A DNA stretch of 64,000 bases, from assembly GCA_019058365.1 (NCBI GenBank), contig JAHPZE010000005.1, forward strand, positions 1 through 64,000, read 5' to 3'. Both the position numbers and the translations under genes were made by a program. The notes beneath the pieces were generated by a model. It made no database searches. It worked only from the letters and a program-made list of their open reading frames with translations, and was not told where the DNA came from. Every line of letters starts with the position of its first letter. Within the stretch, counting starts at the first letter, position 1. The DNA comes from Promethearchaeota archaeon (lineage in GTDB: Archaea; Asgardarchaeota; Lokiarchaeia; Sigyniarchaeales; SOKP01). Shown here one piece after another: positions 47,619 to 54,311 of this stretch.

Positions 47619-48803
47619 ATGGATTTTTCCTTAACTGAAAAGCAAAAAATGTTAAAAAAAATAACGAGAGATTTTGCTGAGGAATATATTATACCTGTAG
47701 CAAAGGAAAGCGATGAAAAACAAGAATTAAATGAGACTACATTCAAAAAAATGCAAGAAATGAATTTTTTTGGAGGATGTCTTCCAGAAGAATATGGAGG
47801 AGCAGGGCTTCACAATGATACAATAGGCTTTAGCATTATTATTGAAGAAATTGGTCGTGCTGATGCGGCATGGGGAATTGTCATTGCTGTGCATAATGGA
47901 GTTGCAGCATACCCTATTTATAAATTTGGAACTGAAGACCAAAAACAAAGATTTTTAGAAGATCTTGCGAAAGGTAACAAAGTAGGAGCTTTTTGTTTAA
48001 CCGAAGCGAATGCAGGTTCTGATGCGGGAGGAGTTCAATTAACCGCAGTTAAAGATGGAGATGAATATATTTTGAATGGTACTAAAATATTTGCCACATC
48101 TGGAGGTATTGCTAAAACATTGTTAGTTGTAGCTAAAACAGGAGAAAAAGACAGTAGAAGACAGATGACTGTATTTATTGTAGATGGAGATACCCCTGGT
48201 TATTCTGTTGGAGTAAAAGAGGATAAATTAGGTGTAAGAGCTTCAAATACTTCAGAACTTGTATTCGAAGATGTACGAGTACCCCAAGAAAATATTTTAG
48301 GAAAAGATGGAGAAGGTTTTAAGATGGCAATGAAAATCTTAGATTTTGGAAGGATAGGCATTGCTGCTCAATGTGTGGGTCTAGGGCAAGCTGCATTAGA
48401 GGCTTCAGTTAAATATTCAAATGAAAGAGTCCAATTTGGAAAACCTATAGGGAGATTTCAGGGAGTACAATGGAAGATAGCGGATATGGCATGTGCTGTG
48501 GAGTCAGCTCGTTTATTCACATATAAAGCAGCTTATTTACATGATAAGGGAGAAGATTTTGGAATGGCTAGTTCAATGGCAAAATTAGTAGCCTCTGAAG
48601 CTGCAATGCAAGCAGCTCATGGAGCTGTTCAAATCCATGGAGGTTATGGTCTAATGAAAGCATATCCCGTAGAAAGATATTTCCGAGATGCCAAGATGGG
48701 TGATTATACAGCTATCTCAGCTGTGTAGCCAAAAATTTATGAGGGCACCTCTGAAATTCAAAGACTAGTAATTGCGGGAAATTTATTAAGAAAAGGTTTC
48801 TAA
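47619..48803 (+). CDS. Acyl-CoA dehydrogenase (butyryl-CoA DH-like), split: join(47619..48703,48734..48803), 384 aa if spliced
   Basis: FCLTEANAGSD, NGTKIF, GRIGIAAQ, RVQFGKPI, QIHGGYG and ERYFRDAK. The missing IYEGTSEIQRLVIAGNLL continues in frame after a 30-nt insert. Confidence 0.93.
48704..48733 (+). other. Putative 30-nt bulge-helix-bulge micro-intron in mRNA
   Basis: Inner 9-bp hairpin 48705-48713/48719-48727. Bulges GA|T (48702-04) and AA|A (48732-34). Central GGGT/GCCA with one G-A mismatch. Outer AGAT/ATTT. Excision regenerates GAA (Glu) and removes the TAG. Confidence 0.75.
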
Positions 48804-48821
48804 TATTAAACCTTTTTTTTT
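48791..48821 (+). terminator. Hairpin plus U-tract at the true end of the acyl-CoA dehydrogenase gene
   Basis: AAAAGGTTT...AAACCTTTT inverted repeat running into a T tract, spanning the TAA at 48801-48803. Confidence 0.55.
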
Positions 48822-49118
48822 CTTATTTATTAATTTGTATATAAAGTTCAATTTTTAGAGAACAAGATTTAGAAAATTGGAGGGCCTTTTTAAAGAATAA
48901 TTTATATGAAAATATAACTTTGAGCATAAATGAGAAATCATTAATCATTGAGACTATCAAGAAAGATAAGCTCGATAAGGATGATAAAAAACAACTTATC
49001 TATATTAAGCAAACTTCCAACAGAAGACTTGATTTCTTTATTAGGAAATGATTTTAAACACCACATACAAAAATAAATTAAATGGGGTTGGAATTTTGAT
49101 TCAGCGGTTAAGAAACTA

Positions 49119-50567
49119 ATGATACAAAATTTTTTAAATACTACAGATCTAATTTCAAATTTAGGCGAAAATGATTTAACTTCAGAATTAATCGGAATTT
49201 TGCTAGGAGATGGTAATTTGTTTTCTAAAAATTATCAAAATCAATTAGATATATCATTAAATCGCATAGATGACCCAAAATACGTATCTTATGTAAAAAA
49301 TTTAATGGAAACACTACTTAATACAGAAATTAAGATAAGCAAACAAAAAGGGAAAGCGATTAGTCTAAGAGTATATAGTAAATTAATTATTAAAACTCTA
49401 GTAAATTTAGGATTAAAAGTTGGAAATAAAGTAAAAAATCAAGTGGGAACTCCTGATTTTATATTTAAAAATATATCTTTCATTATTAGGTGTTTAAAAG
49501 GCTTATTTGATACTGATGGGAGCATAAATGTAGATAATAAAAGAGATATACGATTATCATTTCAAAATTGCTCTAAAACATTAGTAGAGGATTTCTATAG
49601 AATGTGTCTAGCATTAGATATAATCCCATCACCAACAATTAGATATGATGAAAAAAGAGTTGCTTGGAGGGTTGATGTTGCAAAGAAAGATTCTATTTTA
49701 AAATTTTTCCAAATCATCAAACCTGAGAAATTAAAAGAACCCTTTAGGCGAATTTGGATCGCTTCAAAATTAATTTACCTAAATTCTTCTGAAGCTGAGC
49801 AACAAAGAATACGTAATAAAATAAAAATATGGATAAAGCAAAATAACAAAAAAATATTTAAATATTCAAAGAAAAATGCCTTTTTTTTAAAAGATACGTG
49901 CGAAAAGACATTAGGTATTACTATAGATAATGATTTAATCAACAAAACTATTTCAAAGGTCTTAGATCTCGAGAAATATATGTATGATGAATCTAGAGCT
50001 GAACATTTAAAGGTTTTATATGAAAAACTTAGGTCTACACTTAGAATTGTTGAATATTTAATAGATCAAGGAGAAGTTAACATACCACATAGACAGACAA
50101 TTATAGCACATCTAAAAAAATATTTTAAAGAAAAAAATCTTGATTATCAGAAATGGCTAAATGAGAATCCGAAAATGAGGATTGGAATAAATGAGGATAA
50201 TCAGATCCATGTCTTTCCAAATGAGCTACGTAATATTCTTAATGAAATAATTTGTAGAATCTTAATAAAATATAAAAATAAAATTTCTGAGACTAAAATT
50301 ATTAAGTTGTTAAAAGAAGAATTTGAAAATCAAGATTTAATCATAATGAATTGGTTACTTAACAGTACTAAATATAATAAGCCAACTTATCAATATTTAA
50401 ATAATTTAATCTTCCTTAATAAGAAATTGATTGAAAATTATATTAATAAAGAAAAAACAAATATTACATTATTATCAAAAGATCCATTTGTCCCATTTGA
50501 TAGAAGAACAATAACATTAATGGTTGATCATTTAATTAAGATTGGAATTTTAAAACATGATGAATAA
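49119..50567 (+). mobile_element. Free-standing double-motif LAGLIDADG homing endonuclease gene with long C-terminal extension
   Basis: ELIGILLGDG and CLKGLFDTDG motifs, plus intein-type L..LGL..G.K and ..F.N.S..L blocks. No intein splicing termini. Inserted between acd and etfB. Confidence 0.88.
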
Positions 50568-50693: not shown

Positions 50694-51500
50694 TTGAAAG
50701 TTTTTGTGTGTATTAAACAAGTACCAGGGGTTTCAGAAGTAAAAATCGACCCAAACACTAATACACTTGTAAGAGAAGGTGTCCTATCAATACTTAATCC
50801 GAATGATCGAAATGCTCTTGAATTAGCTTTAATACTTAAGGAAAAACAAAGTTCAGAAGTTATAGCATTAAGCATGGGCCCCCCTCAAGCAGAAGAAATA
50901 TTACGCGAAGCTTTAGCAATGGGAGTAGATAGAGGGGTTTTATTAAGCGATAAAGCTTTTGCTGGGGCAGATACTTTAGCTACATCACACACTCTTGCTT
51001 TAGCAATTAAAAAGATATTAAAAGAATCTAATTCAGAAGAAAAATACATTATAATCTGCGGTGCTCAGGCGATAGATGGAGATACTGGTCAAGTACCACC
51101 AGAATTAGCAGAAGAATTGGGAATTCCGCAAATAACTTATGTTCAGAATGTTGAATTAAGTGAAGATAAAATTATCGCAGAGAGAAAATTTAGAGCTACT
51201 GAGATTGTCATTATTGAAACTAATTTACCTGCATTAATTTCAGTATTAACCGATATAAATAAACCTAGATATCCTAGTATGTCGGGAATTATGAAAGCCT
51301 ATGAAAAAGCAAATGTAATATATTTAGATTCAAATGCAATAAATGCAGATAAATCTAAAATTGGCTTAAATGGTTCTATGACTGAAGTCAGGAAAATTTT
51401 CATTCCTAAAAGAAAGGTAAACCCAATCATGTTAGAAGGGTCCACTGAAGAAGTTGTTCAAAATTTATGTCAACATTTAAAAGAGGATAAAATTTTTTAA
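50694..51500 (+). CDS. etfB: Electron transfer flavoprotein beta subunit
   Basis: VCIKQVP, NPND..ALE, SMGPP, AGADTLAT and QAIDGDTGQV. Confidence 0.96.
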   Translation: MKVFVCIKQVPGVSEVKIDPNTNTLVREGVLSILNPNDRNALELALILKEKQSSEVIALSMGPPQAEEILREALAMGVDRGVLLSDKAFAGADTLATSHTLALAIKKILKESNSEEKYIIICGAQAIDGDTGQVPPELAEELGIPQITYVQNVELSEDKIIAERKFRATEIVIIETNLPALISVLTDINKPRYPSMSGIMKAYEKANVIYLDSNAINADKSKIGLNGSMTEVRKIFIPKRKVNPIMLEGSTEEVVQNLCQHLKEDKIF

Positions 51501-51513
51501 GAGGATTATTCAT

Positions 51514-52713
51514 TTGAGTATAATAATTGATGAGGAATTGTGTACTGGGTGCGCTAGCTGTAAGGAGAGTTGCATTTATGGAGCTATTGAATTAGAAAAC
51601 AATATAGCAAAGGTTCTACCTAATTGTACATTATGTGGAGCATGTGTAGAAACTTGTCCCGAAGAAGCAATTTCATTGGAACGGGGTGACGTTAAAGCTC
51701 AAAAAATGGATCTCTCCCTATTTAAAGGCGTTTGGATTATTGCAGAACATTACAATAAAAAAATTAATAATGTTTCATTACAACTACTAAGTAAAGGACG
51801 AGAATTAGCTGATATCTTAAAAGTAAATTTATCACTTATTATATTAGGAGCTAGTTTCGATGATAAATTAGAAGAGCTTAGCCTATATGGAATGGATGAG
51901 ATCATATATATTAAATCACCGATTTTGAAGGATTACTATTCAGATTTATATACAAAAGTAATTACAGAATTAGTATTAGAAAACAAACCTGAAATTATAT
52001 TAATTGGGGCTACCCCTACCGGAAGAGATTTTGCCCCTAGAGTGGCAAAAAGACTTAATGCTGGGTTAACAGCAGACTGTACGGGATTAGAGATAGATCT
52101 TGAAGCAGGAAATCTACTTCAAACTCGTCCAACATATGGTGGAGCGATTATGGCAACTATTAGAACACCTTCTAGTAGACCACAAATGGCAACTGTAAGA
52201 GCTGGCATTTTTAGTATGCCTGAAAAAGTGAAAAAAAAGGTAAATATTAGGAAAATTGAGTATGAATTTGAAGAGAAAGATTCAGTTTCAAAAATTGTAA
52301 AAGTAATAAGTAAAACAAAAACCAATGTTAACCTTGAGGATGCTAAAATTATAGTTGCTGGAGGGCGTGGTGTAGGTTCCAGAGAAGGATTTCGAGTTAT
52401 AGAAAAATTAGCAGAAGTTTTAGATGCTGAACTGGGAGGATCCAGGATAACTGTGGAATTAAATTGGTTAGATCCAGATAGACAAATAGGTCAGACAGGT
52501 AAAACCGTAACTCCAAAACTATATATTGCTTGTGGAATCTCTGGTGCGATTCAACATATAGTTGGAATGGAAAATTCAGAAATTGTTGTTGCAATAAATA
52601 AAGACCCTAATGCTCCGATATTTAATTGGTCGCATTATGGTATTGTTGGAGATCTTCATGAAATTATACCAGTTTTAATAGAGGAGATTAAAAAGATTAA
52701 AGTGGATGAATAG
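51514..52713 (+). CDS. etfA: Electron transfer flavoprotein alpha subunit with N-terminal 2x[4Fe-4S] ferredoxin domain
   Basis: CTGCASC..SC and CTLCGAC..CP, then GLTADCT, QIGQTGK and GISGAIQH. Confidence 0.96.
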   Translation: MSIIIDEELCTGCASCKESCIYGAIELENNIAKVLPNCTLCGACVETCPEEAISLERGDVKAQKMDLSLFKGVWIIAEHYNKKINNVSLQLLSKGRELADILKVNLSLIILGASFDDKLEELSLYGMDEIIYIKSPILKDYYSDLYTKVITELVLENKPEIILIGATPTGRDFAPRVAKRLNAGLTADCTGLEIDLEAGNLLQTRPTYGGAIMATIRTPSSRPQMATVRAGIFSMPEKVKKKVNIRKIEYEFEEKDSVSKIVKVISKTKTNVNLEDAKIIVAGGRGVGSREGFRVIEKLAEVLDAELGGSRITVELNWLDPDRQIGQTGKTVTPKLYIACGISGAIQHIVGMENSEIVVAINKDPNAPIFNWSHYGIVGDLHEIIPVLIEEIKKIKVDE

Positions 52714-52829: not shown

Positions 52830-54311
52830 ATGAAAAAGTTAATTTATGCATATATGTCTGATTGCTCAGACCCAAAAGATTTAATCCTTGCAGCAAGCAT
52901 TCGTAAATTTGGTGGTTCTTTGTCAGATAATCCAATATGGGTGTTAATTCCAAAAGCAGTAGAAAGTGTTACTAAGGAAATGAGAGACTTGTTTTTATCA
53001 ATGAATGTTGAACTTATTTCTTTTTCACCTGAGGATGAGCTAATTTTTCCATTTATTACATATGTTCATGCTGCTGCAAATGCTGAATTATTAGCGAAAG
53101 AAAAGACAAAACTTCTTGCATGGCTTGGTTCAAATACAATAATTTTTAATGAGCCAAAACACTTTCTTTTAGATGAAAATAAGAATTTAGGATATCGGCC
53201 AGTTCATCACACTAATATTGGGTCATTTTTTGATGAGCCAATCGATCCATTTTGGGAACAAGTATATCAAAAATGTAATGTATCTAAAGAACAGATTTTT
53301 CCAATGAAAACACACATAGACCATAACAAGCTTCGACCTTACTTTAATGCGGGTTGTTTAATTATTAGACCCGAGAAAGGACTACTTCAATCATGGTGGA
53401 ATTTTTATAAATATTTATTTAATGAACAAAACTTTAAAGATTATTACAATAAGAACTACATTTATGCCATTTTCATTCATCAGGCAATTTTATCAGGTGT
53501 GATTCTCTCAACTATGGAACGATCCGAACTTTATGAACTCCCTTTTGACTATAATTATCCATTAAATCTATATTACAACTGTCCGGTTGTTTATCGGGCC
53601 AAAAATGTCAACAAATTAATTACAGTTCGTTATGAGGATCCAGAAGATCTTAAAAAAGTTCCACTTCAAGATCCTTTGAAAAGTTGGCTAATAAATCAAA
53701 TAGATAACTTCTTCATAAAAACATTATCCTCTGCTGAGAAAGTTAAATTCGGAAAAGTTTCTTTAGTCTATCCTATCCCGATCATTCTTGCTGGAGCACT
53801 TGTTAATAATCAACCTAATTTTGAGACATTGGGAGACGTTGGAATTATGAGTATTAAACCTCCACTTGTTTACATTTCTTCAGGTCAAAATCATTATACA
53901 AATCAAGGAATTCTCGAAAACAAAACCTTTAGTATAAATTTTCCAACCACTCACCTTCTTGTAAAAACTGATTATTGTGGAGTAGCATCTGGAAATGAAG
54001 TGGATAAATCACAATTATTTAACTTATTTTATGGTGAATTAGAAACAGCACCCATGATACGAGAATGCCCTGTGAATTTAGAATGTAAAGTTATCAAGGA
54101 ATTCTCTATTCAACATAGACAGATATTTATTGGAGATGTTGTACAATCTTATGTGAGTGAAGATTTTGTGATTAAAAGCGAAGAAGGACAGATAATTGCA
54201 GATATGGCAAAACTAGATCCAATTATCTACGCATTAGATAATCGTTATTACAAAATTGGTGAAATAATCGGAACGGGATACCAAGAAAGCAAGAAATTCA
54301 AACAGGACTAA
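52830..54311 (+). CDS. Fusion of GT-A (GT8-like) domain and flavin reductase-like FMN-binding domain
   Basis: N-part: ASIRKFGG, PYFNAG, HQAIL, ELPFDYNYP. C-part: YPIP, PP....S...HYT..GI....FSINFP, DYCG..SG..DK, APMIRECP..LEC. Confidence 0.7.
   Translation: MKKLIYAYMSDCSDPKDLILAASIRKFGGSLSDNPIWVLIPKAVESVTKEMRDLFLSMNVELISFSPEDELIFPFITYVHAAANAELLAKEKTKLLAWLGSNTIIFNEPKHFLLDENKNLGYRPVHHTNIGSFFDEPIDPFWEQVYQKCNVSKEQIFPMKTHIDHNKLRPYFNAGCLIIRPEKGLLQSWWNFYKYLFNEQNFKDYYNKNYIYAIFIHQAILSGVILSTMERSELYELPFDYNYPLNLYYNCPVVYRAKNVNKLITVRYEDPEDLKKVPLQDPLKSWLINQIDNFFIKTLSSAEKVKFGKVSLVYPIPIILAGALVNNQPNFETLGDVGIMSIKPPLVYISSGQNHYTNQGILENKTFSINFPTTHLLVKTDYCGVASGNEVDKSQLFNLFYGELETAPMIRECPVNLECKVIKEFSIQHRQIFIGDVVQSYVSEDFVIKSEEGQIIADMAKLDPIIYALDNRYYKIGEIIGTGYQESKKFKQD

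Follow-up and report, generated by a model that had tools for sequence, protein, structure and literature searches.

An acyl-CoA dehydrogenase gene (acd) of a Promethearchaeota genome (G000; 4.74 Mb, 29.5% GC) is split by a 30-nt BHB micro-intron and is followed by a free-standing LAGLIDADG endonuclease gene. Both lie in the window, the whole 64,000-nt stretch that was analyzed, which is contig C46 of this genome. The best reading of the locus, and in our view a likely one, is collaborative homing with a host-spliced intron, in which a mobile cassette would comprise the BHB intron, a replacement acd 3′ end (exon 2), and the LAGLIDADG endonuclease gene. On encountering a chromosome with the cassette, intronless acd would be cut by the endonuclease at or near its conserved RDAKMG-E-IYEGT codons. 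Repair, bounded by exon 1 on its left side and etfB on its right side, would copy the cassette, and a carrier, its recognition site split by the intron, would go uncut. Host tRNA splicing enzymes (two EndA subunits and RtcB) would excise the intron from the mRNA, so that dehydrogenase would still be made; later loss of the endonuclease through erosion, internal deletion, or crossover in exon 2 would leave intron-only alleles. Sequence comparison supports the structure and boundaries of the intron, selection on the exons and the endonuclease, linkage between intron and endonuclease, transfer of the two as a block, and the position of the junction in one lineage. On the same basis, we judge it quite probable that the endonuclease cleaves near the intron site, and we favor, with less assurance, immunity conferred by the intron itself.

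All features given below lie on the + strand. The acd frame (47619-48728) is ended 16 codons early by an in-frame TAG (48726-48728) inside the insert. Removal of the insert (48704-48733) joins exon 1 (47619-48703), whose end falls within the Glu362 codon, to the 70-nt exon 2 (48734-48803) and gives a 384-aa protein with the C-terminal end RDAKMGEIYEGT..., as in intronless orthologues; the original prediction of an intron-like insert at RDAKMG-E-IYEGT was thereby borne out. The split Glu362 codon stands three codons ahead of the residue that we take to be the catalytic base, Glu365 of IYEGT (Glu376 of MCAD). For an intronless orthologue, the closest structures are of the Bcd/SCAD type, e.g., 5OL2. 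Because Glu365 lies in exon 2, the unspliced product, which lacks this residue and the last helix, is expected to be dead. The insert is, as had been claimed, the sole one of 20 to 45 nt in coding sequence within that part of the window, 52.6 kb, over which syntenic relatives extend.

The ends of the insert obtained from protein comparison coincide exactly with the BHB-predicted cut sites in every allele, and if each bulge is cut behind its second base, every one of them, whether 30 or 31 nt, yields the orthologous protein. The motif is a relaxed one, with a 9-bp intron stem (48705-48713/48719-48727), two 3-nt bulges (48702-48704 and 48732-48734), and a 4-bp central helix (48698-48701/48728-48731). 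Boundaries and fold of the predicted BHB structure therefore stood, with the correction that the central helix forms three of its four pairs here and contains one G.A mismatch; 4/4 pairs form in 11 of 18 allele rows. Exon-exon pairing surrounds the intron (48679-48757) as a proximal helix of 4 bp (48694-48697/48735-48738) and a distal helix of 14 positions (48679-48692/48744-48757). The distal helix covaries between two synonymous positions and has 12.3 of its 14 positions paired in intron alleles versus 8.4 in intronless ones. The central helix also covaries with the exon, Gly-to-Ala codon changes being matched in the intron.

A pattern search found the site occupied in 7 of the 161 genomes of the class, in 4 genera and 2 families. 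The insert is identical in a second genome (G078) and present as variants in five further genomes, which rules out an assembly artefact as its source; two of the genomes with an intron at this site are Ca. Helarchaeota Hel_GB_B and a Promethearchaeota MAG. With metagenomes added, there were 18 distinct intron alleles, and the fold is kept in all. Across them 94% of cells are paired and nine pairs have changed on both sides, a level reached by 0 of 500 shuffles, a control inflated by kinship with which the slid controls (28 to 46%) and type counts agree. Seventeen of the 18 alleles are in frame with a stop, TAG or TAA, at the same codon, and one, from a Helarchaeota genome, is 31 nt long and breaks the frame. 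An alternative-register loop in the insert was out of frame and was disregarded.

Both acd exons are under purifying selection, with a dN/dS of 0.03 to 0.13 for exon 1 between intron-bearing alleles, and the host genome encodes two EndA genes (PF01974) and one RtcB. From these comparisons, removal of the intron from acd mRNA by host tRNA-type splicing is predicted with high confidence. The intron has no Rfam match, no source for its sequence was found elsewhere in the same genome, and the genome contains no near copy of the spliced acd junction (best, 21/28). A de novo BHB scan of the genome returned 170 loose and 4 strict matches, with the acd intron best, and proved too noisy and insensitive for counting introns; a comparative estimate of mRNA intron frequency was used instead. 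A loose insert-pattern scan of all genomes gave mostly chance bacterial matches but identified two carriers by name. Two intronless acd genes, in L122 (G022) and L104 (G092), keep 12 to 13 of 14 pairs of the distal exon-exon helix and are candidates for precise intron loss; the G022 gene is sister to an intron-only allele.

The endonuclease gene (49119-50567; 482 aa, PF14528, E 2.5e-12) starts 385 nt after the intron and is the only homing endonuclease gene in the window, in agreement with the original prediction. It does split the acd-etfB-etfA cluster: the right flank of the cassette, etfB (50694-51500), directly follows acd in cassette-free relatives, the acd-etfB gap being ~220 nt in intronless ones, and is followed here by a ferredoxin-fused etfA (51514-52713). 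Farther on, a 493-aa frame (52830-54311) combines an unannotated N-terminal domain with a flavin-reductase-like domain, a fusion also present in L113 and L135. The endonuclease has two LAGLIDADG motifs, whose catalytic acidic residues Asp31 and Asp133 are invariant in 23 homologues. Close homologues carry the label Candidatus Lokiarchaeota, which, together with the labels of the intron-sharing genomes, marks the host as an Asgard archaeon of the Loki type. Its nuclease domain spans approximately residues 15 to 205, and the remaining ~275 aa are helical with helix-turn-helix-like parts. A structure model (pLDDT 91) has its best fold matches over residues 10 to 205 with I-DmoI (Z 18.1, rmsd 2.1, 162 aligned), I-Tsp061I, and intein nucleases (TliVMA, Z 21.0, rmsd 1.9, 177 aligned); as modeled, the protein adopts the LAGLIDADG fold. 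For the C-terminal region, matches to COMMD-like and helix-turn-helix domains reached just Z 5 to 6, and none in the atlas exceeded TM 0.35.

The region before the gene had to be reinterpreted. Positions 48871-49118 are the decayed remnant, with a 2-nt deletion and a stop, of the endonuclease's N-terminal fusion partner, the end of a large acidic protein. The remnant has 86 to 89% DNA identity to in-frame copies in G078, G073, L113, and L134; in G078, G073, L113, and L115 the endonuclease sequence ends longer frames of 550 to 1131 aa. Deeper branches of the clade are compact stand-alone genes of 467 to 472 aa, tail to tail with acd and at 47 to 58% identity; the 482-aa frame is therefore taken as the ancestral unit. 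With a dN/dS of 0.11 to 0.25 to relatives and 17 synonymous versus 5 nonsynonymous G000-specific changes, the predicted open reading frame from 49119 appears functional in spite of the loss of its original start. An intein fragment was considered as the identity of the endonuclease and dropped, the long frames in relatives being N-terminal fusions; no Hint family match was found in the endonuclease, which sets it apart from intein-borne LAGLIDADG proteins. In G073 (L062:6897-12465) and G101 (L066:5875-12206), the endonuclease domain ends an acidic repeat protein of 1131 to 1429 aa encoded directly behind a HerA/FtsK-like ATPase of 683 to 714 aa, and the acidic repeat protein is fused to different endonuclease lineages at acd/etfB and at glpD. 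Elsewhere in G000, contig C35 holds a 221-aa LAGLIDADG frame within the 23S rRNA region (94711-95316) and a LAGLIDADG in a 1224-aa NrdD-like frame, a probable intein (55929).

The endonuclease clade is present in 5 of 135 family genomes, always at acd/etfB; four of the five have the intron, and the contig of the fifth ends at the endonuclease gene. It is an optional, patchily distributed gene at a fixed site beside conserved sequence. Among the 18 intron alleles, 10 have the endonuclease adjacent (in two orientations, one copy decayed), L130 retains a deleted remnant of it, G073 has it preceding etfB on another contig, three continue into cargo genes or reach the end of a contig, and in the other three acd is immediately followed by etfB. 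The cargo genes after acd (CDC48-N-like and LRR-like, in G073, G075, G078, L129, and L131) indicate that the cassette can reach several kilobases. The endonuclease or its remnant thus stands next to 11 of the 18 intron alleles and to none of the 30 intronless alleles that could be scored, some of the latter being covered by just 1.5 kb of flank. The distributions of insert and endonuclease are not independent, as had been anticipated. These plain tallies count kin. Intron alleles are dispersed over the tree of exon 1, with 8 changes and four starred intron/intronless sister pairs, and a tree-aware test of linkage, with about four pairs for and none against, is not significant (p 0.125). Intron and endonuclease appear to have been acquired together, and a free-standing endonuclease gene adjoins an ORF-less intron, as in collaborative homing. 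The absence of the endonuclease from all 30 intronless alleles is only consistent with the intron acting as a cleavage block.

Synonymous divergence was compared between G000 and the co-oriented alleles of G078, G073, L113, and L134. Values were 0.15 to 0.22 for exon 2 and mostly 0.13 to 0.24 for the endonuclease, compared to 0.39 to 0.60 for the core of exon 1 and 0.30 to 0.41 for etfB. Exon 2 and the endonuclease are approximately half as diverged as exon 1 and less diverged than etfB; therefore, the block was shared more recently than its flanks, in line with the proposal that insert and endonuclease move as one. G000 and G078 have the block, and G005 and G098, at a similar overall identity (about 90%), do not. 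Recombination among these species is, by these comparisons, frequent and their genomes mosaic throughout: identity to G005 ranges from 70 to 98% per kb along the window, and block transfer accordingly needs no nuclease; intron and endonuclease are, moreover, separated by only 70 to 400 nt of homologous DNA. A G005 breakpoint ~200 nt upstream of the intron was set aside as strong evidence, since both genomes are mosaic throughout.

A pointer to the cut site comes from L117, L118, and L124, where a second, frame-broken exon 2 lies beyond the endonuclease, just before etfB. Homology in this displaced copy begins at about +6, ~5 nt past the intron position, and L130 has the same displaced-exon junction with an internally deleted endonuclease. 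The displaced copies represent one event because the junction is common to all. The simplest reading is that a cassette once entered through a break at the position of the intron, which was repaired by homology on its left side and joined irregularly on its right, and the junction would be a single, indirect pointer to where the enzyme cuts. G117 follows the proximal exon 2 of L117 and then its distal 3′ flank, an arrangement that recombination between the two copies of exon 2 would produce, with loss of the endonuclease and retention of the intron.

The alternative that survives best, and that we consider unlikely, is that the endonuclease targets the acd 3′ end, with immunity due to base changes in exon 2 or at the end of exon 1, and that the intron hitch-hikes in the converted tract. 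In a sister endonuclease clade (42 to 44% identity), the gene adjoins the 3′ end of a different ACAD paralogue (L194:2000-2337 and L136:4011-4214), whose visible part contains no intron at the homologous site; the lineage thus seems to follow the C-terminal motif of ACADs, and an intron is not indispensable to it. L194 lacks 1 nt at the Gly-Glu codons that correspond to the intron site, which may be either a repair scar or a homopolymer error. Family members adjacent to glpD, YchF, and an ncRNA also lack an insert, and intron alleles have in common a distinctive exon-2 haplotype (Ser TCN versus mostly AGY). The haplotype is, however, explained by the distal exon-exon helix, which covaries with an exon 1 Arg codon; we had considered it as a mark of co-conversion and rejected it in favor of this RNA pairing. 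Hitch-hiking is further opposed by the cassette junction within about 5 nt of the intron site, by the retention of the intron in all 11 endonuclease-bearing acd alleles, and by the same pairing at five further loci.

At these five loci, more distant family members adjoin genes with inserts of 30 to 34 nt, as the original prediction of further intron-split neighbors had it. Four of the interrupted genes encode a MoxR-like ATPase, a small GTPase, a thiolase, and a metallo-hydrolase; the fifth is unnamed. Each insert lies in the half of the gene nearest the endonuclease; four of the five are in recognizable conserved motifs, and three score well as BHB structures, the other two partially. Inserts were found in 5 of at most 48 endonuclease neighbors, a roughly estimated denominator, compared with 2 of the 230 genes in a background of 400 kb of unselected DNA (Fisher p 0.002); one of these 2 background genes is the same as that at one of the five loci. 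About 1% of genes carry such inserts. Most other family loci had no insert in the adjoining gene. In G000 itself, a LAGLIDADG gene of an unrelated family (C49:54961-56055; related genes at C32:13856 and C52:29138) is convergent with an acetoacetate/acyl-CoA ligase gene that is split by a 30-nt BHB-like insert (C49:53861-53890).

Mere linkage, in which the endonuclease landed behind an intron-bearing acd, ordinary recombination has acted since, and the enzyme cuts elsewhere or has another role, is less probable still. Such a role could be that of a C-terminal domain of the large acidic protein encoded beside the HerA-like ATPase, since in G073 and G101 the domain ends that 1131- to 1429-aa protein behind the ATPase; pervasive mosaicism, the roughly 1% of genes with inserts in any case, and the nonsignificant independent-pairs test also speak for linkage alone. 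Against it, the deeper compact genes of 467 to 472 aa, in the opposite orientation, are still at acd at 47 to 58% identity, and purifying selection continues after loss of the fusion partner. The one-sided tally, the enrichment and polarity at the other loci, and the second, unrelated LAGLIDADG abutting an intron-split gene in the same genome likewise count against linkage without targeting. That the insert is unspliced, acd being a pseudogene, read through at the stop, or used as a truncated protein, is very improbable: an in-frame stop at the same codon in 17 of 18 alleles and a 43% paralogue of acd would suit it, but the stop varies between TAG and TAA, the insert length changes to 31 nt in one allele, purifying selection acts on both exons, Glu365 and the last helix are missing from the unspliced product, and exon positions take part in the RNA-level covariation.

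Collaborative homing with a host-spliced intron may extend beyond acd. We propose tentatively, as a possibility that falls just short of probable, that a family of LAGLIDADG enzymes with a helical DNA-binding tail generally serves to carry BHB micro-introns into the protein genes of Asgard archaea. Each lineage would follow a conserved motif close to an end of the adjoining gene, bring its own substitute for this gene end with an intron that provides immunity, and later drop out, leaving orphan mRNA introns (~1% of genes). Separately, several other inserts were observed. In G000, a small zinc-finger gene (C15:15642) contains a stop-bearing 30-nt hairpin insert that a relative lacks and that is a further candidate for an mRNA intron. 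Relatives have further inserts of 29 to 30 nt, two each in an SCP2-like gene and an unnamed gene and one in a CinA-like gene (L182:4277-4383, L150:10846-11008, and L161:10049). Endonuclease relatives in G075 (L171:7600-8740) and G138 (L174:5780-6900) are flanked by the duplicated end of an unannotated RNA gene, GC-rich, probably structured, without an Rfam match, and located beside a ubiquitin-conjugating (E2-like) gene.

Archaeal rRNA BHB introns with I-DmoI and I-Tsp061I resemble the acd locus in combining a BHB intron with a two-motif LAGLIDADG enzyme. The I-DmoI and I-Tsp061I genes lie inside their rRNA introns, whereas the acd-linked gene is outside the intron and encodes an extra helical region of 275 aa. 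In cyanophage S-PM2, the free-standing F-CphI gene lies beside an ORF-less group I intron of psbA (Zeng et al. 2009, via PMC6083498), and collaborative homing is also described in T3/T7-like and ICP1-related phages (10.1101/2023.03.23.533998). As far as the account in PMC6083498 goes, the two systems have in common a free-standing endonuclease gene, an ORF-less intron in a conserved motif, joint acquisition, and an intron expected to prevent self-cleavage. By the same account they differ in that F-CphI is a phage enzyme of the Endo VII type with demonstrated cleavage and the psbA intron a self-splicing ribozyme, whereas the acd cassette, known from sequence, is on a cellular archaeal chromosome, includes a replacement exon 2, and pairs a LAGLIDADG enzyme with a 30-nt intron predicted to be removed by host proteins. 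The acd intron, at 30 nt, with a BHB motif and no Rfam match, is not a group I intron.

The cbf5 pre-mRNA of Crenarchaeota has BHB introns of 16 to 44 nt within coding sequence (PMC2738675), described in 2020 as the sole further case apart from a 5′ UTR site in Haloferax (PMC7714728). The cbf5 and acd introns are alike in their BHB motif at an active-site motif, the cut between the second and third bulge base, and patchy gain and loss. The cbf5 introns are too short for a nuclease gene, and no neighboring nuclease is reported (PMC2738675); the acd intron, in contrast, is in a metabolic gene of Asgard archaea and has a linked endonuclease, with splicing demonstrated for cbf5 and predicted for acd. 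In fungal mitochondria, endonuclease elements at Allomyces atp6 (Paquin et al. 1994) and Phlebia atp6/cox2 bring a new 3′ end (via PMC4019555, which itself offers a different reading of the Allomyces case). In that secondary account, these elements likewise insert near the gene 3′ end, supply a replacement end, and displace the old one; they differ in belonging to organelle genomes and, as described there, in having no BHB intron in the replacement end. No paper joining a BHB mRNA intron with an adjacent endonuclease was found in a search that was thin in subscription journals, and a 2026 preprint on Asgard tRNA introns leaves their arrival route open and never mentions homing (10.64898/2026.10.13.758758).

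In the papers searched, a BHB intron within archaeal coding sequence was confirmed for one gene family, cbf5. To this the acd locus adds a displaced exon, a pop-out allele, synonymous exon covariation, and a sister clade that tracks a paralogue. The original pairing of intron and endonuclease stood and was extended, in that the cassette has its own exon 2 and an eroded fusion end and the intron is not obligatory for the family. The locus displays a cycle of gain and loss, with a cassette in two orientations, a displaced old end, an internal deletion, and a pop-out. Gene callers truncate intron-bearing acd to 369 aa, and such truncation would affect Asgard metabolic reconstructions. A candidate enzyme and a candidate target of 20 to 30 bp can now be named, which provides a testable route for the spread of tRNA-type introns in protein genes. 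If the reading is true, endonuclease drive would spread protein-spliced mRNA introns in the closest prokaryotic relatives of eukaryotes.
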